Sequence record: MT446416.1 | Source: Escherichia virus TH47 | Length of the DNA: 64,000 bases | Reading direction: 5' to 3' (one strand) | Shown here: positions 32 to 21,801 of the stretch, piece by piece | How positions within the stretch are numbered: position 1 is the first letter of the stretch | Layout of the letters: each line of letters begins with the position of its first letter | Program-made: the position numbers and the translations under genes | Notes under the pieces: generated by a model | What the model was told of the DNA's origin: nothing | What the model saw: the letters and a program-made list of their open reading frames with translations, nothing else | Databases searched by the model: none

Positions 32-1501
32 ATGTACAGTGATTATCAGCACATCCTAGATAGCATCACCAATGCTAAGTACTACGATGATATGAATGCA
101 TTTGATAACCTAGCACTTGAATCACAAACTTCCGAGTTAAAATGGGAAGTTGAAGGTGACGAAGTAGATCCGTACATAATCGACATTTCTGATATTAACC
201 CATCAGGAAGAAAGATTGGTCAGATTCGCTTCACAGTTGATGGTTATGGATTCAATAGTGTTTCACGAGTTCAATTGAGAGACAATAGTAGATATAAAAC
301 TGAAGGTATGGTTATTATCAACCCTTATAAAACAACAGAAGCAATTGTTAGTATTCCTTCTTACGCTAAGATTGAAAATGATATTAGTAAATCATACAGT
401 AAGTATGATGAAAAATACTTCTATAAAATTAAATCAATTGTTAGTGATACAGAAGCTGAAGTAATTGACAATACCCTATCTGATGGTGATAAGGTTATGA
501 TATTCACAACTGATGGTGAAGATTATGTGAGATACCAAAACAATGCATGGGAAACCATCTTGAGTGTATCAAAAATCAAAACTGACACCACACCAACCTT
601 GTACACAGTAAGAAACACTGCGAACGGAACTGTAGAACTACTAGATAGTACTGGAGTTGTACTTCGTTATGATAACATCACTAAACAACAGAATGAACCA
701 GCAATACCTCTAGCATTGAACATCGTTCGTATTAGAACCTTTGCTGATCCAGAATTCTTGGTTGATGGTGTTAAGTTGTATGAAACAAATAGAAATTATG
801 CTATCGACGCAATGAACTATGAAGTATTCTACGACACAACACTATACGGTGGTTCTTATAATGATGGAATTACACCAGATGACGTTGATGTTTGGGTAGT
901 GTCTAACGAGATATTTGAAGTTGATGGTGTTACCATTGATAACGGATATAACTTACCAATTACTGGTGCAGGTGTTCTTAGTGAGTTAGTGAGAACAAAA
1001 ATGACTGATAGTGTGGAAATTAACGTGTTCGAGTATGATGTTGGTATTATTCAACCTGTACTGAATGCTGAAGGGGTATGGGAATATGCATATCCACTAG
1101 TTAGTGATACATATATTGGTGTAGTTGGTGGAACAGTAACTAACATTACTGCTATCAGTGAAGAAAATGCTACTTATGTTTCACAACCAGATTCAGTTAG
1201 TCCATATAGTGTTACTAATAATGTTCTATCTGGTGCTGGTGCAAGTATGAATGATATTATTTCTCTTGGTTTTGAAAAAGTTGAAGTACGATTTGCAAAT
1301 AACTTACTCCGTGGGGTAATGTATAGTGCAGAACACGACTTTAAAGAGAATGTGACATATTCATTTAATGGATTGAACTTAGGTAAAGTTAATTTACTAA
1401 AACGTTATAGTGTTAACAGTTATCCAATCGAACTATCGGTTTACTCCGATAGTTTGCAAATAAGTGGTAATGACATTAAAAATCTATTAGAAGTTAAATA
1501 A
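32..1501 (+). CDS. hypothetical protein, probable virion (tail/baseplate module) protein
   Basis: 489-aa ORF with ATG start, followed directly by a hairpin terminator; no catalytic motif recognised; lies in the structural/fibre cluster. Confidence 0.55.
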   Translation: MYSDYQHILDSITNAKYYDDMNAFDNLALESQTSELKWEVEGDEVDPYIIDISDINPSGRKIGQIRFTVDGYGFNSVSRVQLRDNSRYKTEGMVIINPYKTTEAIVSIPSYAKIENDISKSYSKYDEKYFYKIKSIVSDTEAEVIDNTLSDGDKVMIFTTDGEDYVRYQNNAWETILSVSKIKTDTTPTLYTVRNTANGTVELLDSTGVVLRYDNITKQQNEPAIPLALNIVRIRTFADPEFLVDGVKLYETNRNYAIDAMNYEVFYDTTLYGGSYNDGITPDDVDVWVVSNEIFEVDGVTIDNGYNLPITGAGVLSELVRTKMTDSVEINVFEYDVGIIQPVLNAEGVWEYAYPLVSDTYIGVVGGTVTNITAISEENATYVSQPDSVSPYSVTNNVLSGAGASMNDIISLGFEKVEVRFANNLLRGVMYSAEHDFKENVTYSFNGLNLGKVNLLKRYSVNSYPIELSVYSDSLQISGNDIKNLLEVK

Positions 1502-10758: not shown

Positions 10759-10825
10759 ATGGCAGTTTTTTCCAATTTAGAAGGGACCATGATGCCAACA
10801 TTCAAGTTGGGTAAACGTGGTGCTT
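10759..10825 (+). repeat. shared N-terminal module, copy 1 (MAVFSNLEGTM...)
   Basis: about 65 nt near-identical to 12915-12981 at the 5' ends of two adjacent fibre genes. Confidence 0.7.
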
Positions 10826-12900
10826 CTATTAATTTTGTAAACGATTCTGTCGCAATCAAAGACTTTTTAGGTGAAACGTTCCTACCTGTTAAGGTGGGAA
10901 CTCCTAATGACGATGATTCCGCAGTAAACGTTATGTATCTTGAAGATAACCCAAATGCTTTATTTGGCGTACTTCCACCAACAAATGACATTGGTAAAAA
11001 TAACAACACTTATTTTCAAGTTGATTCTGAGGGTATTGTTGATATCTTTGCAAAAACAAATGATGTTTGGGTAAAATCATTATACATTAATAAAAATGTC
11101 CTTTCCAGTGTTAACGGTGCTGATTATATCGGACTTATTACTGGAGGAACACTCCAACAGGCACAGTTTTACATAACTCCAGAAGAGTTTGGTGCAAAAG
11201 GTGATGGCATCACTGATGACACGGCAGCGGTTAACGCATGTGCAGTTTATGCAAAAGAACACCAAATCCAAATTCAAGCTGGTGGTAATTATCGTATCAG
11301 AACTGCTGTTTATTTGAATGATATTCAATGGTTTGGTGGAACAATCACTGGCAACGGTGGCACAATGGTATCAGTACTGAATAGTACAATCCAACAAGCA
11401 ACATTAACAGGATGTTATTTAAAATTCTTTGGTGGTGATGGTAAATTTTATTTTAATAAATTTATTAATATTACAAGTACTGCTACATTTCTAATGCAAG
11501 GTATGACTGAATCAGGTACTATCGACTTTTGCTTTAATGAAATGACACAATGTAAGTACGGTGTTCTTCAGCAAGGCACTGGTGAGAAAATGACAGTTGG
11601 GCGTTATTCATACAACCACATCCATGATATATATGGTGATGCAATTGAATTGAACGTAGTCAACTCACATTACCCAGACGGTTTTGTAATAGAAGGTAAC
11701 TTGATTGAAAACGTAGATGGTACAGATGCACCAATTCCTCTTTCAAACTGGGGTATTGGTATCGGCGTTGCTGGTTCTGGTCCTTATGATGTGAATGCTG
11801 ATGATTCACAATATGTAAAAAAATTCGTTATAAAAAATAACCGCTTGTACAATGTCCGTCAATGTATTCACGTTGAGTTGGGTAAAGACTTTAAAATTCT
11901 CAATAATGAAGTTTATCCATCAACGTTGGTATCAATTGGTACTGGTTTGACAACCGCTGGTGTAATTACTTATGGTTCTGTTGATTTTATTATTGATGGC
12001 CTATCTGGGCATCTATTAAATGATCCATCAGTAACTAACCGTATGGTTTCTATTAACTGGGGTGTAACATCTGGTAAATTTGCTGGTCCTCCACGTAACT
12101 TTAAATTATGTAATCTCCACATTCCTGAGTCGTCTATTATTGTGTATACTTCAGGCTCTGATAATTGGCTAAATACTACTGAACTTTCTAATATTACATG
12201 TAGTAGAATTCAATGGCGTGGATTGCCGTCATCTTCCAAGTTTAATAATATCAGTACTAAAGAACTTGATGTTATTGGACAACACCTTGCAACTGAAGGT
12301 GAAGGAGGGGGCTTATATACTCGCTCTAAATATACATATACCAACTGGACTAATTGTGTTGTTCAAGATGATTGTAACATATCAAAATATAGTTTCTCAA
12401 GAATGTATGTTGACCGTATTGACCAATCATCTAATAACTTTAAAGTAACCACTGCAATTGATGGAACTGGACATCGTGGACCTGTAGTAATACCTGTAGT
12501 TGAACAGTATTACGTGCCTTATGATGTTTTTCCTGGTGGGAGATATTTCCCAGAAGGAACAATTATCCATAAACAATCAGGTGGAAAATTTATTGTTACA
12601 GTAGGTGGTTCTTTCTTTGGTCGATATGACACAATTAGACAAACAGTTGCAGGACAAACTTATATCGAAGCATTGGGTGTATCATGGGGTGATAATCAAT
12701 ATGCTAAAGCTGCTGGAACCGAAATCCTAATCACAGGAGCAGGGGAAAACGGCGAAGATTTAAAAACATATATCACTAGAGCAGTTTATGTTGTTAATAA
12801 TGCGTATCGTATCGATATTGCCGATCCGATTGTTACTGCTACCGCAGCAGGGGCATTATTGAAAGCTGCTCAACCAATAACATATATCACCCTATCTTAA
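10759..12900 (+). CDS. tail spike/fibre with pectate-lyase-like beta-helix domain (candidate depolymerase)
   Basis: motif EEFGAKGDGITDDTAAVNA typical of pectate-lyase-superfamily tailspikes; N-terminal MAVFSNLEGTM module shared with the next gene. Confidence 0.65.
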   Translation: MAVFSNLEGTMMPTFKLGKRGASINFVNDSVAIKDFLGETFLPVKVGTPNDDDSAVNVMYLEDNPNALFGVLPPTNDIGKNNNTYFQVDSEGIVDIFAKTNDVWVKSLYINKNVLSSVNGADYIGLITGGTLQQAQFYITPEEFGAKGDGITDDTAAVNACAVYAKEHQIQIQAGGNYRIRTAVYLNDIQWFGGTITGNGGTMVSVLNSTIQQATLTGCYLKFFGGDGKFYFNKFINITSTATFLMQGMTESGTIDFCFNEMTQCKYGVLQQGTGEKMTVGRYSYNHIHDIYGDAIELNVVNSHYPDGFVIEGNLIENVDGTDAPIPLSNWGIGIGVAGSGPYDVNADDSQYVKKFVIKNNRLYNVRQCIHVELGKDFKILNNEVYPSTLVSIGTGLTTAGVITYGSVDFIIDGLSGHLLNDPSVTNRMVSINWGVTSGKFAGPPRNFKLCNLHIPESSIIVYTSGSDNWLNTTELSNITCSRIQWRGLPSSSKFNNISTKELDVIGQHLATEGEGGGLYTRSKYTYTNWTNCVVQDDCNISKYSFSRMYVDRIDQSSNNFKVTTAIDGTGHRGPVVIPVVEQYYVPYDVFPGGRYFPEGTIIHKQSGGKFIVTVGGSFFGRYDTIRQTVAGQTYIEALGVSWGDNQYAKAAGTEILITGAGENGEDLKTYITRAVYVVNNAYRIDIADPIVTATAAGALLKAAQPITYITLS

Positions 12901-12914
12901 AGGAGATTATAAAA

Positions 12915-12981
12915 ATGGCAGTTTTTTCTAATTTAGAAGGAACCATGAAGAAGACCTTCATACTTGGTAAAAATGGTGCAC
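12915..12981 (+). repeat. shared N-terminal module, copy 2
   Basis: near-identical to 10759-10825. Confidence 0.7.
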
Positions 12982-13814
12982 AAATTGCCACTAATGGTAA
13001 TGTTGTTCAAATCCAGAACTACACGGGTACACAACTTCTTCCTGTTTCAGCAGGTGACCCAACCGCAAATACACACTTGGTTACATTGGGTTATTTGAAT
13101 ACACATAGCGGTGGTGGTGGCGGTTCCGGTATTTTACGTGGAACTATTGCACCATCTGAATCAATTGGTGTAGATGGTGACGCTTACTTCTTAGTTGACA
13201 GTACTAATATTATTCAGATCTATATTAAAGACCTTGGTGTTTGGAAACCTCTCCAAAGCACAACTCCAGGTACTGATAGTTCTTACGTTACTACTGAAAT
13301 CGTTCCTGTATCGGCATTTACATTAGTTCCTGGAACAACAGATCAATATACTTATTCTTTACCTGAATCAGTACATGGTCGTGGTCCAGATATTATGGTT
13401 CAGCTACAGGGTGACCCTGGTAACATCCCACTTGACACTGTATTCCAAACTAACGTCACTGTGAGTGGTATTGGTGACATTACGATTGATGTTATTGGTC
13501 AAATCACTGATTATACAAGTGTCAAAGTCAACATCATAGGAGCAACAACAATGACAGTACCTTATAGTAAATTAATTAACCAAGCGGATTGGGTAGTATC
13601 TAGTGATGAATACACCATTACTATCCCAGCGTCTGAACATAACCAAACACCTGATAATTTGTATATTTCAATTTATTCAAATAAAACTCCAGGTAGCACA
13701 GCAGCATCACCATTTGAACTGGTAATAACCGAAACTCAAATTGATGCAAGTGGTAATGTTACATTCACTTCTGACGAAGCGTTTAGTGGTAAAATAGTAA
13801 TTTCTGGTAAATAA
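12915..13814 (+). CDS. tail fibre protein (paralogous N-terminus, distinct C-terminal domain)
   Basis: N-terminus MAVFSNLEGTMKKTF matches 10759 gene; AGGAGA RBS; poly-Gly linker GGGGGSG. Confidence 0.6.
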   Translation: MAVFSNLEGTMKKTFILGKNGAQIATNGNVVQIQNYTGTQLLPVSAGDPTANTHLVTLGYLNTHSGGGGGSGILRGTIAPSESIGVDGDAYFLVDSTNIIQIYIKDLGVWKPLQSTTPGTDSSYVTTEIVPVSAFTLVPGTTDQYTYSLPESVHGRGPDIMVQLQGDPGNIPLDTVFQTNVTVSGIGDITIDVIGQITDYTSVKVNIIGATTMTVPYSKLINQADWVVSSDEYTITIPASEHNQTPDNLYISIYSNKTPGSTAASPFELVITETQIDASGNVTFTSDEAFSGKIVISGK

Positions 13815-13932: not shown

Positions 13933-16900
13933 ATGTACTCGATTAAAACAGATCTCGATATAACTGGTGGTGCAACGGTTGGTAAAGATCTTCTTGTGAA
14001 AGGCGATGCAGTATTCAATAAAAATCTAACAGTTAATGGAACCGTAACTTTTGCTGACGCTGTATTCACTGCGATTGAAGCAGGAACTGTAGACATTTCA
14101 TCTACACTAGATGTTGCTGGTAAAGCATCATTGAATGGTGGGATTGAAGTTCATGGTAATTCCGTAATTGGTAATTTACCAGTTGGCTCTGATACTGCAA
14201 CGATTAATTCTAATGCACAATTCCAAAGCCCAGTATCAATGGCAGGTAACCTAACACAAACGGCTGGCACTGCTGTACTAAAAGATACCCAAGTGGCATC
14301 AATGGATGTTCTTGGAACTTCTTCATTTAAAGGTAATATTACTGCTGAAACTGGCACTACCGCAGCATTTGACAAAATAACTGCAACTGATGCAACATTC
14401 ACAAACACTGCAACTACTGATATCACATCAACTGGAACTGCAAACTTTAAAGATGTGAATATTTCCGGTACACTAGGTGGAACATTTAGTCTATCTGATG
14501 TTAATGCAACAACTCTAACTGTTTCTGGTTTAACCAGTCTACAAGGTGGTGTTACATTAGGTTCCAACATTACTGGTGTGAATAGTAGTGCAAACTTCCG
14601 TGATATTAAAATTGGTTCCAATGCTGCAAACACTAACTACCGTTTGAGCTTTAACTATTCTGCTCCAAGTCTTCGTCCAACTGTAATTCTACAGAACGAA
14701 ATCCAATCAGAATTGATGTCTCCAGCTACCCTAAGTGTATTGAAAACTGCATCTTTTGGTGATTCGTCATTATCCACTTTTGGTATTACTGGTAATGGTC
14801 TAAACAAACTAGATTACCTAACAGTATCTGGTAACTCTGTTCAAGATCCAACAACTCCACTATTACAAGTAACTTCAGGTAAAACTAAAGTTCATGATTT
14901 CGAAGTAACAGGAACTGCAACTATTCCTAACATTGAAAGTACTGGAACTGCTAATTTTAATAACATCAACGTATCTGGTACACTCGGCGGTACTTTCAGT
15001 CTTGATGATATTGAAGCAAACACTCTAACTGTTTCTGGATTAACTAGCCTTGTTGGTGGTGTAACTTTGGGTGCTGATATTTCCGGTGCTAATAGTACTG
15101 CTAATTTTAAAGCAGTAAGTTTAGGACAAAACGCAGCCGATGCTAACGTTAAGTATGGTTTTGCTTATTCTGCCCCTGGTGCACGTCCAACTGTAATTCT
15201 ACAAAATGAAATTCAGTCTGAACTAGTATCTCCAGCAGTACTAAATGTACAAAAAACTGCTACCTTCGGTGATGCATCTCTTGCAACCTATGGTATCACA
15301 GGTAACGGTCTAAACAAACTAGATTATCTATCTATTACTGGTAATGGTACACAAAGTCCAGCAACGCCACAACTACAAGTAGCTGGTAAATCAGTACTAA
15401 ATGATGTTGAATTCACTGGTACTGTAACTGGCCTAACAGTTGATGTAAGTGGTCAAGACCTAACTCCTAAATCTGTTGTTGCTGCTGAAGCAATCAAAGG
15501 ACAAACCCTTGAATCTGTTGGTCAAACCACCGTAGGAACTAACCTACAAGTTGGTGGAACAGCTAATGTTGTTGGTGCACTAACTGGTACTGCTGCAACC
15601 TTTACTGGTGACGTAAGTGCTGCTAAAGGTACTTTCAGTGGTGATGTTAGCGTTACTGGGCAAACTGTAACTGTACGTGATTTAGTAGTAACTGGCACAA
15701 CTACTGGTGTAACTGCCCAAGCTGACGTTGATGGTCTTGATATCGCCCCAAATAAAGTTGATGTTACAACAACACTATCTGTTGCTGGGGACACTACTTT
15801 AGCTGGTCTAACTGCTAGTTCAGTAACAAGTACTGGTGATGTTACTGGTGCGTCTGTATCTGGTAATACAGTAACTGCGGCTGGTGCACTATCTGGTGGT
15901 TCTCTTGCAGTAACTGGTGCTGGTTCTATGGCTTCACTAACTGTTCCAAGTATTACTGGGGACACTACTTTTGCTAATAACGTAACTATTACTGGAACAC
16001 TAACTCCGAGTAGTATAGATTTAAGCACTACTGATGTAAGTGCTGCTTCTTTAACAACTACTGGTAACGTAACTGTTGGTGGTTCTCTTGCAGTAACTGG
16101 TGCTATTGATTTGTCTGCTGCTGATGTAGTAACAAAATCAGTTAGTGCAACTAACCCAAGTACATTTGGTGTAATTAATGCATCTTCTGTTGCCGCAACT
16201 GGTGACGTTTCAGGTGGCACTCTAACTACTACTGGTGCAGCGAAAGTAGGAACACTAACTAGTACTGGTGTAGTATCTGGTTCGCGTTTGTCTTCTGGTA
16301 CTGCAACAATCTCAACTTCTGTAACAGTTCCAACTTTACAAGCTGAAGCTGCTGGTGCTGGTACACTAAATCTAGCAAGTAATGTTGTCGCGGCAAAAGA
16401 TCTAACTGTCACTGGTGTATTCAAACCTGAAGGTGGTCTTGACCTAACAACTGTTGATATTACTGCAAACTCACTAACTACTACTGCTGATGTTAATGTT
16501 GGTGGAAACTTAGTAGTTGATGGTACTTTTGACCTAAGTGCTGCTGATGTATCAGTTAAATCTCTTGTAAGTGCAGAGGCAATTACTAGTGGTGGTGTGA
16601 TTACCGTTACCGATTCAACCAATACTAGTTCGTTCCCTAAAATTACTTCAACTGATGCAACACTCTTTACAGTAAATGCAGGTACTATTAATGCAACTGG
16701 CAACAGTGTACTACAAAGTGTATCAGCTACTCAAGTAACTGCTACTAGTGCTGAATTTTCTGGTAGTGGCCTTGGTCTTCAAGTTGATAATGATGCAAAC
16801 GTTGGTGGTGCATTATCTGTTGGTGGCATTGCAACTGTTGGTTCTTTAACAACAACTGCTGCTTCTCTTAATATTGCAAAAAATACTGCAATCAATGGTG

Positions 16901-18891
16901 ATTTAGCTGTATCTGGTACACTAACTGCTGGTTCAATCGACCTAAGCAATACTGATGTAACCGTTAAATCTCTTGATTCACTAGGTAACGCACACATTGC
17001 TGGTAACCTAACTGTTGATGGTGCATTCGACTTAAGTGCAACTAACCTTGTAGCTGCAAGTCTAGCAAGTACTGGTTCTACTACTGTTGGAACTGATCTA
17101 GTACTAACAACTGGTGTTGTGACTGGTAGCCCAGCTATCTCTGGTAATACAACAATCGGTGGAACTCTTGGTGTAACTGGTGCTGTTAACCTAACTGATA
17201 TTGTTAATATCGGTAAGAAAGTAACAGTGAGTACTGGTGGTATTCAGGTAGTTGATGGTGGTATCAATACTAACACAATTAACGTTTCTGGTGCTACTAC
17301 TCTAGCAGGAACTTCCATTACTGGAACTTTAGGTGTAACTGGTGCTTCTACTCTAGCAGGTGTATCTGCAACATCACTAACAGTTTCTGGTGACAGTACT
17401 GTTCAGAAACTAACTGTCCAAGGTGAATTGATCCCACAAGGTGGTCTTGACCTAAGCGGTGCAGACATTACTGCTAATAGTCTAACTACTGCAACAACTA
17501 TCAATGCAACTGGCCTAAGTACTCTAAGTGGTGGTGTTAGTACTTCTACTGTGACTGCATCTGGTCTAGCAACTGTTGGAAGTTTAACTTCTACTGCAAA
17601 CGCATCAGTTGGTGGTAATTTGGGTGTAACTGGAACTCTAGGTGTTACTGGTGCAACTACTGTATCTTCACTAACAGCTACTGGTGCAGTGAAAACTGGT
17701 ACAACCCTAACTGTTGGTACTCCAGTTGGTGAACAACCTGAAACTGTACAGATCATTCCAGATACTTATATTGCTGGTAAATTGCGTGTAATCGGCGGTA
17801 TTAACGCTGATATTGATGTTAGTGGTCAAACACTAGAACCATATGCAATTGAAGCTGCTGCAACACTATCTGCTGTTGGTAACATTACTTCTGGTGCAAC
17901 CATCGTTTCTAAAGCTGCAACAATTGGTGATGTTGGTTCACAAAACAACAACCTAACTGTTAATGGTAACGTAGTAACTAATGGTGACTTCACAGTTACT
18001 GGGGTACTAAATGCACAATTGAACCAAGCAGATTCCGATGTAGCTGTTAAATCTTTAACTGCAACTAATAACGTTGCGGCTGGTACTTCAATCACTGCTG
18101 GTACTTCCATCACTGCAACTGGATTACTTAAAGGTAATACTTTAGAAGTTACTACTACTGGTTCATTTGGTGGTGCAGTAACTATGTCAAGTGGTGCAAA
18201 CATCACTGGTACAGTGGGTATTACTGCTGGTGACCTAACAGTAGGTGGTAATATCTCTGCAACTGGCACTGCTGGATTCGGTGCAACAACCGTTTCTACA
18301 ATTACAACATCAGGTTTGGCTACACTTGCAAGTACATCCGTTACTGGTAACGCAACAGTAGGTGGAACACTAGCAGTAACAGGAGCACTAACTGCGAATG
18401 GTAACGTAACATTAGGTGACGCAGCGGCTGACGTTCTAACCGTTAATGCAACTTCATCATTTAAAGAAAATGCTGTGTTTGATAAGGCAGTAACAGTAAC
18501 TGGTGAACTAACCACTACTAATGCTAACTTAACTACTACAACAGTAACTACCAAAAAGTATGATGTAATCCCAACTCAAGTTACATCATCAGTAATTGCT
18601 CCAACCGGAACATGGACTCCAGATGGTACAAGTAACGTGTACTTCATCACTCTAGACCAAGATACCACGTTGGCTCCAATTACTGGCCTAATTGGTGGCG
18701 GTAAAGCTGCATCAGTATACATCTATGTTAAACAAGATACAACTGGTAACAGAAACTTTACAACTGATGGTACTTATGCTGTTGTTGATGGTGAACTAAA
18801 CAAAACTGCTGGTAGCGTGACCATTTACCAAGTAATTTATGATGGTGTAAGTCCAGTTACTGATTTGTTCATTGCACAACGTACTGCTTAA
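13933..18891 (+). CDS. giant fibrous protein (1652 aa), probable long tail fibre
   Basis: GGAGGG RBS; Thr/Gly/Ser/Val/Ala-rich repetitive sequence with recurring LTVSG, VTGT and GNxT motifs; internal tandem duplication. Confidence 0.7.
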   Translation: MYSIKTDLDITGGATVGKDLLVKGDAVFNKNLTVNGTVTFADAVFTAIEAGTVDISSTLDVAGKASLNGGIEVHGNSVIGNLPVGSDTATINSNAQFQSPVSMAGNLTQTAGTAVLKDTQVASMDVLGTSSFKGNITAETGTTAAFDKITATDATFTNTATTDITSTGTANFKDVNISGTLGGTFSLSDVNATTLTVSGLTSLQGGVTLGSNITGVNSSANFRDIKIGSNAANTNYRLSFNYSAPSLRPTVILQNEIQSELMSPATLSVLKTASFGDSSLSTFGITGNGLNKLDYLTVSGNSVQDPTTPLLQVTSGKTKVHDFEVTGTATIPNIESTGTANFNNINVSGTLGGTFSLDDIEANTLTVSGLTSLVGGVTLGADISGANSTANFKAVSLGQNAADANVKYGFAYSAPGARPTVILQNEIQSELVSPAVLNVQKTATFGDASLATYGITGNGLNKLDYLSITGNGTQSPATPQLQVAGKSVLNDVEFTGTVTGLTVDVSGQDLTPKSVVAAEAIKGQTLESVGQTTVGTNLQVGGTANVVGALTGTAATFTGDVSAAKGTFSGDVSVTGQTVTVRDLVVTGTTTGVTAQADVDGLDIAPNKVDVTTTLSVAGDTTLAGLTASSVTSTGDVTGASVSGNTVTAAGALSGGSLAVTGAGSMASLTVPSITGDTTFANNVTITGTLTPSSIDLSTTDVSAASLTTTGNVTVGGSLAVTGAIDLSAADVVTKSVSATNPSTFGVINASSVAATGDVSGGTLTTTGAAKVGTLTSTGVVSGSRLSSGTATISTSVTVPTLQAEAAGAGTLNLASNVVAAKDLTVTGVFKPEGGLDLTTVDITANSLTTTADVNVGGNLVVDGTFDLSAADVSVKSLVSAEAITSGGVITVTDSTNTSSFPKITSTDATLFTVNAGTINATGNSVLQSVSATQVTATSAEFSGSGLGLQVDNDANVGGALSVGGIATVGSLTTTAASLNIAKNTAINGDLAVSGTLTAGSIDLSNTDVTVKSLDSLGNAHIAGNLTVDGAFDLSATNLVAASLASTGSTTVGTDLVLTTGVVTGSPAISGNTTIGGTLGVTGAVNLTDIVNIGKKVTVSTGGIQVVDGGINTNTINVSGATTLAGTSITGTLGVTGASTLAGVSATSLTVSGDSTVQKLTVQGELIPQGGLDLSGADITANSLTTATTINATGLSTLSGGVSTSTVTASGLATVGSLTSTANASVGGNLGVTGTLGVTGATTVSSLTATGAVKTGTTLTVGTPVGEQPETVQIIPDTYIAGKLRVIGGINADIDVSGQTLEPYAIEAAATLSAVGNITSGATIVSKAATIGDVGSQNNNLTVNGNVVTNGDFTVTGVLNAQLNQADSDVAVKSLTATNNVAAGTSITAGTSITATGLLKGNTLEVTTTGSFGGAVTMSSGANITGTVGITAGDLTVGGNISATGTAGFGATTVSTITTSGLATLASTSVTGNATVGGTLAVTGALTANGNVTLGDAAADVLTVNATSSFKENAVFDKAVTVTGELTTTNANLTTTTVTTKKYDVIPTQVTSSVIAPTGTWTPDGTSNVYFITLDQDTTLAPITGLIGGGKAASVYIYVKQDTTGNRNFTTDGTYAVVDGELNKTAGSVTIYQVIYDGVSPVTDLFIAQRTA
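14422..15453 (+). repeat. tandem duplication of a ~516-nt (~172-aa) unit inside the giant fibre gene
   Basis: two consecutive diverged copies (STGTANF..NxSGTLGGTFSL..TLTVSGLTSL..RPTVILQNEIQSEL..GITGNGLNKLDYL..). Confidence 0.6.
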
Positions 18892-18910
18892 TAATTATAA
18901 TAAAAAAAAC

Positions 18911-18934
18911 GGTGTCATCAATTATGGTGACACC
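18911..18934. terminator. hairpin between fibre genes (A-run upstream, no T-run downstream on + strand)
   Basis: stem GGTGTCA/TGACACC; orientation best suits a minus-strand terminator or an RNA-processing structure. Confidence 0.3.
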
Positions 18935-18957
18935 ATCTTAACAAGTGAGGTAGTTAT

Positions 18958-19737
18958 ATGTTTACATATGTAAAAGGTAGTTCTAAAGAAAATTATGAAT
19001 TGGGTAACATCATCTCCAACCCAGTTGGTGTTAAGGGTTTAAAAGAACGCCCTGGGGCAACTCCAGATGATGAACAAACATATCGTTATTTGTACAGTGA
19101 TATTCGTGCACTTTATGGTATTTCAAGTAAAGATGGTTCTGAAATTGAACCTAATAACGCTGTTCGCAAAGAAGAGGGTTTCTGGTGGTTGGAATATAAG
19201 AATGTTGGTAATGTGAACGCAATTAATGAGAATTTGGAATATATTAAACTACAAGATAGTAATCAACCAGTCATCACATTCTTAGAAGAAGCAGAAGGTG
19301 AATATAAAGAGTTAACAGTACTGAAAACTTATAATTATGTTGATATGGACATTGCAGCAGTTAAATCTGATCTGAAAGCACGCACAGTATCATCTCGTAG
19401 TGATCGTATTAATGCTGGTTATATGTTTAACGGTCATCGTTATAGTACTGATCTAGCTGGTCGTCAAATGCTTCTTAATTATTATACACAAGTAACTTCC
19501 GGTTCTGATAGCGTTTCGATTTTCCTTGATGACGCAATTGTAAAACTATCTGCTGCTGAAATGACTCAACTATACACTGAAGCATTTGCTATGGTTGAAT
19601 CCCTATTTGCAGAGTGTAATAAGCAATGTGCTGACATTGATGCAGTTCCTGATGCTGATGAAGATGCAATTTATAAAGCACAACAGGCGGCTGTATGGGT
19701 ATATGAAGGTATTGATATTCCTGAGCGTACTCGTTAA
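18958..19737 (+). CDS. hypothetical protein, possible tail-fibre assembly/chaperone
   Basis: 259-aa ORF with GTGAGG RBS immediately after the giant fibre gene; assignment by position only. Confidence 0.45.
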   Translation: MFTYVKGSSKENYELGNIISNPVGVKGLKERPGATPDDEQTYRYLYSDIRALYGISSKDGSEIEPNNAVRKEEGFWWLEYKNVGNVNAINENLEYIKLQDSNQPVITFLEEAEGEYKELTVLKTYNYVDMDIAAVKSDLKARTVSSRSDRINAGYMFNGHRYSTDLAGRQMLLNYYTQVTSGSDSVSIFLDDAIVKLSAAEMTQLYTEAFAMVESLFAECNKQCADIDAVPDADEDAIYKAQQAAVWVYEGIDIPERTR

Positions 19738-19751
19738 TTTATATTTTTTTT

Positions 19752-19784
19752 AAAGGTCAACTATGGTTGGCCTTTTCTTTTATC
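19752..19784 (+). terminator. rho-independent terminator
   Basis: stem AAGGTCAAC/GTTGGCCTT (one mismatch) followed by T-rich run. Confidence 0.5.
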
Positions 19785-19829
19785 TAAAATAAATACTTAA
19801 TATATAATCTATTCTGAGGAAATATTTAA

Positions 19830-21794
19830 ATGAGTATAAATCGAATTAGAGGTGATGGTGGTGTAATTATAGATAGTCAGGCATTTCTAGAATTACCTAA
19901 AGCACCGACTAAAGAAACCGCTGATGTGGTTAGATCAGGGATGATTAGATACAATAAAGGATGGAAAGCATTTGAAGGTGTACTAGACTTTGAAGATGGT
20001 TCAATGGCATATCGACGTTTTGCAAACCTAGATGCGAACGGTAAACTTCTTACTTCCCAATTACCAGATTCAGTAACTAGTGGTTTACAATTTGTTGGTA
20101 CATATAATCCCATCCCAGATGATATCGATCCACCTTTAGCACAAACTCCACTACCAGCACCATCACCATCGCTTAATGGTGATTATTATGTCGTTCGTGG
20201 TATAATGGATGCCGCACAAGCACATTATGAAGCAAATAATCCACAAACAAGTCCTGTTACATTTACACCTACAAATCCAACTGGACAAGGTAATTGGATT
20301 GAAATTTTATATTATGTTGACTCTAATCCAAATATATCTGGTGCTAAACTAGTAACATACGCTTTTGCTAGAATTATTACTGCATCTATTCCCAGTACTG
20401 GACATGATGGCCTTGAAAATTTAGCAACAGATACTGACTTGACCAAACCATTTGCATCTGGTGTTCCAATGAACCAAACTGCACTTTCAGATGGCGATTG
20501 GATTATTATAACTGAAGATAAGAATATACGTCTTCGTCAGTCAAGAACAAGCATTTCCGCTGCTTCAGTATTATATGACAATACTGTAATGATTGCAAAT
20601 CATCGTCAATTTAGAACAAACGCAGGGACCGTTCAAACATCCATAGATAACGTTGTGATTGAGTGTTTACGTAGAACTGGCGATTCCATGTATAATGATG
20701 GAACAGACGGCTCTGGGCGTTTTGGGGTGGTGTATGGCAGTGCAGCAGCACCAGCATTGACATTTAATAATAATCCGTTTGACCCAACGAATAACCCAGG
20801 TAATGACCCAACTAAGTGGTCCGATGCTAATACTGGTATATTTCATCCATCCGATGACGCAATTGGGTTCAGCACTGCTGGCACAGAACGTGTTCGAATT
20901 AATAATGGAACACTAACATTATTCCAAACTACCGCTACACCAGCAGCTACGCCAGTAATACGTTTTGATAATGCATCAAACACAAACGTAGGGATAAGTG
21001 CAAGTAGTAATATTATTTCTTTAAGTTCAATGAATAAAGTTCAAGTTGAATTTAAAAATGGTGAATCACATTTTCATGGAAATATTATTGTAGATGGTTC
21101 AACATCACTAACTGGTGATTTAGACGCAGGTAACATCAATGCCAGCGGGAATTTAGTTGTTAAAGGTAATACAACACTAGGTGACACTACTGGTGACACT
21201 ATTACAGTTAATGGTGTTAGTACTTATAATGCAAATACTAATTTCAATGGAACTAATAACAAATTCAAAAACATAAACTTACTAGAGAATGGTGTATTCA
21301 CATTAGAAAGTACTACAAACCAAAGTGATATAAAACTACTTGGTGCAGACTTACGTTTCACTATGGGAAGTTATGCTGATGTAAGTATATATGATAACGG
21401 TGTTATTCGTACTCGTTTCAACCGATATGGTATTCAATTACCAGTACTGGCTACAATTGATAACTCGGTTGGTGTTGATGGTATGATTGCATACTCAAAT
21501 ACCGAACGTACATCGATGCAGAAGGTTCAAGGACAATGGGTTCCAATTGGTTCTGGTTCTGTTCGTACTGACCCGTTTGTTGCGTCAGCGTGGGTTTTAA
21601 ACGGCTCATATTACACATTAACAGTAACTGCTAGTAACATAGTAACTGCTGAAATTCAAGAACTCGTAAGTACTGGTGTTTACACTCGTGTTGAAGTTGA
21701 TAGTGTTACATTCAATGGAACAAGCGTAGTGTTCAGTATCCCTGCAACTCCTGATGTGAGATTTGCCGGACGTACACTGGTTACATTAAGATAA
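19830..21794 (+). CDS. tail fibre protein
   Basis: 654-aa ORF, GAGGAAA RBS; Asn/Thr/Gly-rich with fibre-type repeats; ends at bidirectional terminator. Confidence 0.55.
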   Translation: MSINRIRGDGGVIIDSQAFLELPKAPTKETADVVRSGMIRYNKGWKAFEGVLDFEDGSMAYRRFANLDANGKLLTSQLPDSVTSGLQFVGTYNPIPDDIDPPLAQTPLPAPSPSLNGDYYVVRGIMDAAQAHYEANNPQTSPVTFTPTNPTGQGNWIEILYYVDSNPNISGAKLVTYAFARIITASIPSTGHDGLENLATDTDLTKPFASGVPMNQTALSDGDWIIITEDKNIRLRQSRTSISAASVLYDNTVMIANHRQFRTNAGTVQTSIDNVVIECLRRTGDSMYNDGTDGSGRFGVVYGSAAAPALTFNNNPFDPTNNPGNDPTKWSDANTGIFHPSDDAIGFSTAGTERVRINNGTLTLFQTTATPAATPVIRFDNASNTNVGISASSNIISLSSMNKVQVEFKNGESHFHGNIIVDGSTSLTGDLDAGNINASGNLVVKGNTTLGDTTGDTITVNGVSTYNANTNFNGTNNKFKNINLLENGVFTLESTTNQSDIKLLGADLRFTMGSYADVSIYDNGVIRTRFNRYGIQLPVLATIDNSVGVDGMIAYSNTERTSMQKVQGQWVPIGSGSVRTDPFVASAWVLNGSYYTLTVTASNIVTAEIQELVSTGVYTRVEVDSVTFNGTSVVFSIPATPDVRFAGRTLVTLR

Positions 21795-21801
21795 TAAAAA
21801 A

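Follow-up and report, generated by a model that had tools for sequence, protein, structure and literature searches.

Internal duplication is well known in phage tail fibres. In the T-even phages, the long tail fibre proteins gp34 and gp37 of T4 contain repeat motifs, and host range can expand through duplication of a small domain of gp37. The long tail fibre (LTF) of phage phiTE (Certrevirus, Vequintavirinae) is a trimer, predicted to form a highly extended β-helix with a total length of 512 Å, and is proposed to contact two other fibres (PMC11972413). Among jumbo phages, the orthologous proteins 121Q gp571 and phAPEC6 gp256 (1841 amino acids) are labelled as “long tail fiber proximal subunit” or “tail fiber protein”, and the virion proteome of phAPEC6 lists gp256 at 180.38 kDa, with 15 unique peptides (PMC7247149). 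Here I describe their orthologue in a 64,000-nucleotide stretch of Escherichia virus TH47 (sequence record MT446416.1; hereafter the window), a tail-fibre gene that contains two homologous units, labeled A and B, in tandem (Table 1). I consider it about 85% probable that this region encodes the proximal portion of a giant structural tail fibre, that it contains an old in-frame duplication of a module, and that the long open reading frames (ORFs) on its antisense strand are not genes.

The window comes from an E. coli jumbo phage that is Asteriusvirus-like (121Q/phAPEC6 group). The fibre gene shows 96–98% nucleotide identity, across ∼86–90% of its length, to nine Asteriusvirus-like phages (WPEC5, CMSTMSU, EC.P1, Ecwhy_1, fEgEco12 and four others), and ∼75% DNA identity to 121Q gp571 and phAPEC6 gp256. 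The encoded protein matches PHROG 4549, “tail fiber protein” (E 1.9e-200). The computed mass of phAPEC6 gp256 is 180.38 kDa, identical to the mass listed in the virion proteome; since this orthologue was detected in virions by mass spectrometry, the plus-strand product is a real structural protein. Pfam returned nothing at or above threshold, either for the whole fibre or for units A and B together, and subthreshold matches to MmoB, ATS3 and LRR were dismissed as noise. The module is uncatalogued, and the fibre has no Pfam model.

Units A and B comprise 170 amino acids (510 nucleotides) each, and are arranged head to tail without a spacer. BLASTP aligns them with 112 of 168 residues identical (67%), 83% positives and one single-residue gap (E 3e-82). 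In a scan of the protein along its own diagonals, an offset of 170 residues scores 549 (residues 163–313, 69% identity), against 185 for the next best offset. In the corresponding DNA scan, an offset of 510 yields 205 matches in the best 300-nucleotide segment, while in-frame offsets average 121.6 ± 7.3, and a DNA repeat search recovers ungapped stretches of 219 nucleotides (74%) and 167 nucleotides (73%), both spaced by 510. The pair is the only strong off-diagonal signal in the protein and DNA dot-plots. Tandem Repeats Finder, for which the longest period is 500, did not report it, because the period exceeds this value and the copies have diverged. A preliminary description of the window, made from the DNA alone, had placed two homologous but diverged units of ∼172 amino acids (516 nucleotides) at 14422–15453. 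The homology and the region stand, but the unit length and the boundaries had to be corrected, and in the self dot-plot proposed as a check the signal lies at an offset of 510 nucleotides, not 516 (119 matches out of 300, which is background). Two other origins for the pair were rejected. A template and variable repeat pair of a diversity-generating retroelement does not fit, as the 145 mismatches in 450 nucleotides fall on all four bases (45 on A, 30 on C, 19 on G and 51 on T), and are not confined to adenine. Likewise, A and B are not derivatives of the shaft repeat described below, to which they are unrelated (hhalign against the unit profile, probability 1.6%); the first ∼55 residues of the unit do resemble ordinary shaft repeats, with weak hidden Markov model (HMM) matches along the shaft.

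The A–B duplication is old, and both copies are under purifying selection. Between A and B, the nonsynonymous and synonymous divergences (dN and dS) are 0.26 and 1.36 respectively, for a dN/dS ratio of 0.19, and third codon positions are 47% identical, compared to 39% expected from composition. Between orthologous copies, the dN/dS ratios are 0.27 and 0.17. The pair is found at identical positions in 121Q gp571 (residues 163–332 and 333–502), and at residues 110–449 of a second, paralogous fibre gene located directly downstream in WPEC5, fEgEco12 and vB_Ec-M-J. Across 121Q gp571, the window, and the second fibre gene of WPEC5 and fEgEco12, like-for-like identities (71–75% for A to A, 77–78% for B to B) exceed those between A and B (58–68%). 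A neighbour-joining tree of all units places A and B in separate clades, both of which include sequences from 121Q gp571, from the two JNE01 fibres, from fEgEco12 g316 and from the window. This separation across genes indicates that the A–B duplication is older than both the fibre-gene duplication and the split between the 121Q and WPEC5 lineages. The position of the joint can also be identified. Fibres with a single unit close it with a B-type junction (...VTGTVTG-L/I-T followed by DVxGxDIxPxS), and the phiTE-like protein P0020 is collinear with the window protein through unit B into the shaft (query residues 383–642 to 208–511, E 5e-20). It follows that B keeps the ancestral downstream junction, and that the end of A (TGTATIPNIE/STGTANF) is the duplication joint. 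I propose that the 170-residue module was duplicated head to tail, in frame and long ago, with unequal recombination or replication slippage as the simplest routes, and that purifying selection has retained both copies since.

I then compared the window protein to the described fibres. A phmmer search against all PDB chains (E ≤ 1) returned only chain g of the phiTE structure (9cuy_g), which is very probably the phiTE LTF. Residues 563–792 of this chain match the C-terminal region of the fibre (E 1.8e-32), whose C-terminal domain ends in ...DVF(I/L)xxR, as in the phiTE-type family, and the unit profile identifies residues 169–331 as one module (domain E 2.4e-14). The phiTE chain (9CUY/9MJN, 793 amino acids) therefore resembles the window fibre in its T/G/V-rich shaft motifs, its module and its C-terminal domain, but is half as long and has one module instead of two. 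In addition, its N-terminal α-helical bundle and globular anchor (approximately residues 1–165) have no counterpart in the window protein, which starts with a β-rich region (MYSIKTDL...) common to the jumbo-phage homologues; for the phiTE-type “rip-cord” bundle, which docks on wedge/sheath-initiator proteins, no alignment covers residues 1–157 of P0020. The experimental phiTE model is restricted to the N-terminal part of the fibre, upstream of the module, in which residues 14–171 comprise a helical bundle and a globular domain, followed by a short β-helix and a second, short helical bundle; the extended β-helix is the prediction for the rest of the chain (PMC11972413). The 121Q gp571/phAPEC6 gp256 orthologue lies in the same neighbourhood, and its amino-acid identity to the window protein varies from 35 to 83% along the length. 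Finally, the rV5-like (Vequintavirus) protein bas57_0039 (P0017), a 581-residue “lateral tail fiber protein with glycosidase domain”, possesses one module at residues 149–312 (∼31% identical to unit A; E 5e-53, with bas57_0039 itself among the sequences of the profile), but the fibre is short and its C-terminal part differs. Pfam did not detect a glycosidase domain in it.

The number of modules varies between fibres. Profile mapping locates one unit in P0020 (phiTE-like, 790 amino acids), bas57_0039, P0018 and Serratia BF_0225, and two units in the Asteriusvirus fibres, GAP32_220 and P0011–P0015. The longest array seen, with three units, is in the second fibre gene of JNE01 (WOL22751 = P0010, 2120 amino acids; L009:13540–18510). 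Its units are ordered A-A′-B, and A and A′ are sisters, 83% identical, which points to a second, younger in-place duplication. Since homologous fibres hold one, two or three units, the sequences support lengthening by module duplication, and the earlier suggestion of fibre elongation by segment duplication is borne out by this series and by the homology of A and B. A tblastn search with unit A identified the module in 171 phage records, at 2–5 places per genome in Asteriusvirus and 1 in rV5-like phages; among other Rak2-like jumbo phages, it occurs twice in GAP32 and CBB, and once each in Serratia BF and in Erwinia, Yersinia, Klebsiella and Salmonella phages. The family is small and rare: HMMER, run exhaustively over 1.84 billion representative proteins (50% identity representatives), found only 15 at E ≤ 0.001. 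Homologue searches queried with A and B together and with a 10-sequence unit alignment yielded 6 and 3 proteins, mostly fragmentary and not enough to characterise the family, and a scan of IMG/VR with the unit found the 121Q genome itself only.

Downstream of B, the shaft contains a diverged 74-residue repeat (...LTVxGxLxxxxIDLSxxDVxxxSL...GGxLxVxGxxDLSA...), with copies spaced by 141–166 residues (self-comparison offsets of 141, 166 and 307). The shaft of 121Q gp571 carries ∼190 extra residues relative to the window protein, in nine insertions of 5–57 residues; length change through repeats is general in this protein. The family architecture consists of a variable N-terminal anchor, one to three modules, a T/G/A/V-rich β-structured shaft of variable length made up of repeats of its own, and a conserved C-terminal domain of ∼110 residues, with additional modules and shaft repeats lengthening the fibre. 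This defines the domain architecture of a fibre family that is inconsistently labelled in GenBank. The mode is the same as in the T-even fibres, namely in-frame segment duplication and recombination between fibre genes, but the unit is much larger (170 residues), and is proximal rather than part of the receptor-binding tip. The finding is one of ordinary fibre evolution, and raises no new question.

The preliminary description had also pointed out long stop-free frames antisense to the fibre gene, giving coordinates for two, and attributed them to biased composition. Both are present as described, together with two shorter ones (Table 1), and the attribution is supported. The long antisense ORFs all lie in one frame, in which the first codon base is paired to position 2 of the sense codon. 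A stop codon in this frame requires a sense T-TA, C-TA or T-CA across the codon boundary (marked here by the hyphen), which occurs only where Tyr follows a codon ending in T or C, or where Gln or His follows a codon ending in T. The fibre protein has only 61 Tyr, Gln and His residues, with runs of up to 206 residues free of all three, and the frame has 23 stops in 1652 codons (24 with the stop codon of the gene); the two remaining antisense frames contain 132 and 157. The density of the first frame, 1.4 per 100 codons, is the lowest among the 44 large genes of the window (1.9–6.3 in the other 43). When synonymous codons are shuffled with the protein kept, the longest open run is 370 ± 94 codons, and 28.5% of the shuffles reach at least 402; when codon order is shuffled, it is 195 ± 52. 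The amino-acid sequence alone explains the antisense ORFs.

The frames are also broken in relatives. The 393-residue ORF has stops at codons 577 and 596 in WPEC5, where the fibre gene is 98% identical, and at codons 647, 758 and 905 in 121Q, where the 242-residue ORF has stops at codons 1304 and 1525. Substitution counts by codon position cannot distinguish the sense frame from this antisense frame, because the wobble positions of the two coincide, and a conditional synonymous test was used instead. In comparison to 121Q, 81% (46/57) and 77% of sense-synonymous transitions in the two ORFs are also antisense-synonymous, against ∼91–92% expected, and 71% (82/115) and 67% of sense-synonymous transversions, against 75% and 69% expected. 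No additional antisense constraint is therefore seen in this comparison, the changes being antisense-synonymous at or below the chance rate. The antisense ORFs match no Pfam or PHROG family, no Shine-Dalgarno-like sequence precedes the TTG starts of the 393- and 242-residue ORFs, whose products are low-complexity and V/T/P/A-rich, and no antisense coding sequence (CDS) is annotated in seven related GenBank records. GAP32_220 (L006:5624–10297) has a stop-free run of 782 codons in the same antisense frame, and spurious giant antisense ORFs are a property of the fibre family. For gene callers and curators, the rule is that very long antisense ORFs in this family (up to 782 codons) are spurious and should not be annotated. 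Elsewhere in the window, the ORF at 38383–38841 (+ strand, 152 residues, TTG start) overlaps the minus-strand genes 35961–38624 and 38719–39399. It is the sole window ORF of at least 150 residues, apart from those of the fibre gene, to overlap opposite-strand genes, and it too is probably spurious.

Several observations weigh against the interpretation given at the outset. The two units of GAP32, and those of P0011, are mutually closest (73% and 66%, respectively), so that these pairs could be independent duplications or the result of gene conversion, between which the tree cannot separate. The identity of chain g as the phiTE LTF, although very probable, is deduced from the character of its sequence. 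Structure prediction gave little help: AlphaFold2 (AF2) on the single sequence of residues 148–522 reached a predicted local distance difference test score (pLDDT) of 50.6, and an AF2 monomer of unit A with a 22-row alignment (pLDDT 70, predicted template modelling score 0.34) is an extended chain essentially without secondary structure. The latter outcome is what an obligate intertwined oligomer could give, but the model cannot be used. As no reliable module structure was obtained, the fold of the module and the length it adds can only be inferred. Lastly, the antisense frame has fewer stops than its synonymous shuffles (23 against 30.8 ± 3.2, one-sided P 0.009). By analogy to phiTE, the window fibre would be a trimer, and scaling from 793 residues per 512 Å would put each module at ∼11 nm and the complete fibre at ∼100 nm, as a very rough estimate.

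The selective value of an extra module may lie in reach, in spacing, or in an extra docking site for fibre components. On an alternative explanation, the module would be a ligand-binding or docking domain (for a glycan, or as a side-fibre branch point), duplicated for avidity or attachment sites and not for length. Its best-conserved motif, G-x4-DY-x4-GN, produces a marginal profile match to the carbohydrate-binding module 2w3j_A, relatives display complex multi-fibre baseplates and “hairy” appendages (PMC7247149), and the phiTE LTF is itself proposed to make contacts with two fibres (PMC11972413). However, the 2w3j_A match is not significant (E 0.17), and a carbohydrate-binding identity was not adopted for the module; AF2 with an alignment predicts no compact domain, and the first third or so of the unit looks like ordinary shaft, as noted above. 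I consider this explanation unlikely. A further reading is rather unlikely too, namely that the module is a discrete node on the proximal fibre, serving as a docking point for adaptor proteins or other fibre proteins or as a binder of surface glycans; if true, the copy number of one to three would set the number of side components per fibre and so contribute to the appendages, branched or “hairy”, of Rak2/121Q-like jumbo phages, and the module would also be a fibre domain family new to the catalogues.

The alternative for the origin of the pair is that the second unit was imported by recombination from a paralogous fibre gene, in which case A–B would be a mosaic and not a tandem duplication. 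Close relatives do possess at least two module-bearing fibre genes, and recombination between such genes does occur, as the window gene is itself a hybrid (see below). Nevertheless, all Asteriusvirus fibres examined, both paralogues among them, have A and B next to each other, in the same order and spacer-free; the two clades are older than the fibre-gene duplication; and the extra unit of JNE01 is sister to its immediate neighbour, which is the signature of in-place duplication. Import is therefore improbable, and an in-frame tandem duplication is preferred.

The hybrid nature of the window fibre gene was identified by informative-site analysis and three-way alignment. It combines two tandem paralogous fibre genes, of the types represented by WPEC5 CDS0403 and CDS0404. 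Up to ∼18100 (the 5′ ∼4.2 kb), it is of the CDS0403 type, with 97–100% amino-acid identity; from ∼18130 (the 3′ ∼0.76 kb) onward, the two following genes included, the sequence is 99.1% identical to the CDS0404 3′ end and the region beyond it (window 18300–21800 corresponds to WPEC5 234188–237688). In each of the nine close relatives, matches extend over 86% or more of the 403-type gene, and the 404-type 3′ end, with the region beyond it, is matched over its full length at no less than ∼98%. The two-gene arrangement is annotated in WPEC5, fEgEco12 and vB_Ec-M-J. In all, ∼5.85 kb present in WPEC5 are missing from the window, and match coordinates indicate the same ∼5.85-kb spacing in EC.P1 and Ecwhy_1. 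The crossover sits where the two paralogues are nearly identical, beside a tandem repeat at 18079–18116 (2.1 copies of the 18-nucleotide GCTGGTACTTCAATCACT, encoding AGTSIT AGTSIT), at which CDS0404 has a further 18-nucleotide insertion. The missing segment reflects either a natural recombinational deletion or an assembly collapse. Together with the series of one to three modules, the hybrid gene illustrates that fibre length and composition change by recombination among the fibre's own repeats and paralogues, which is relevant to host-range engineering.

As to the antisense strand, it is extremely unlikely that any of the long ORFs represents a true overlapping gene, despite their length (393 and 242 residues), the modest stop deficit and the equivalent open run in GAP32, because this length is expected from the sense protein, the deficit (observed/expected 0.75 for the fibre) falls inside the range of the other 43 genes (0.90, range 0.61–1.25), the longest ORF is broken by synonymous sense changes in WPEC5 and 121Q, and no excess antisense constraint, upstream Shine-Dalgarno-like sequence or Pfam or PHROG match was found.

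Table 1. Coordinates of the fibre gene, its internal features and its neighbours in the window (aa, amino-acid positions in the fibre protein, or length).
Feature	Position	Strand	Remarks
Colanidase-like tailspike gene	10759–12900	+	PHROG 6117, E 1.6e-251; subthreshold pectate-lyase-like Pfam match
Virion structural protein gene	12915–13814		Upstream of fibre gene
Tail-fibre gene	13933–18891	+	1652 aa, 161.7 kDa, T/G/A/V/S-rich; orthologue of 121Q gp571 and phAPEC6 gp256
Antisense ORF, 160 aa	14151–14633	−	Same antisense frame; artefact
Unit A	14419–14928	+	aa 163–332; C-terminal end TGTATIPNIE
Unit B	14929–15438	+	aa 333–502; downstream junction TGTVTGLTVDVSGQDLTPKS as in single-unit fibres
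Antisense ORF, 393 aa, TTG start	15522–16703	−	Compositional artefact
Shaft motif copy 1	15949–16170	+	aa 673–746; HMM E 4e-37
Shaft motif copy 2	16369–16593	+	aa 813–887; HMM E 8e-38
Shaft motif copy 3	16870–17091	+	aa 980–1053; HMM E 2e-37
Weaker partial shaft motif copies	aa 1158–1205, 1343–1389	+	HMM E 2.5e-8, 1.9e-7
Antisense ORF, 117 aa	17403–17756	−	Same antisense frame; artefact
Antisense ORF, 242 aa, TTG start	17826–18554	−	Compositional artefact
Crossover zone	18100–18260	+	Informative-site analysis and three-way alignment
Conserved distal shaft and C-terminal domain	18184–18879	+	aa 1418–1649; common to phiTE fibre; BLASTP to P0020 E 4e-12
DUF4376 protein gene, 259 aa	18958–19737		Downstream of fibre gene
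654-aa protein gene, PHROG 14293	19830–21794		Downstream of DUF4376 gene
Thymidylate synthase gene		−	After 654-aa protein gene

The gene order around the fibre gene is conserved with 121Q, GAP32 and Serratia phage BF. In GenBank, the orthologues carry inconsistent labels, including “colanic acid-degrading protein” (WPEC5), “flagellar hook-length control protein FliK” (CMSTMSU), “long tail fiber proximal subunit” and “hypothetical protein”. The colanidase-type tailspike encoded upstream is probably the source of the WPEC5 label. Several relatives are labelled as a T4 gp34-type proximal subunit; for this, the phmmer search described above, which covered PDB chains and included no direct comparison to full gp34, returned only 9cuy_g at E ≤ 1. 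In CMSTMSU and vB_Ec-M-J, the fibre gene is split into several CDS, which probably reflect frameshift errors.

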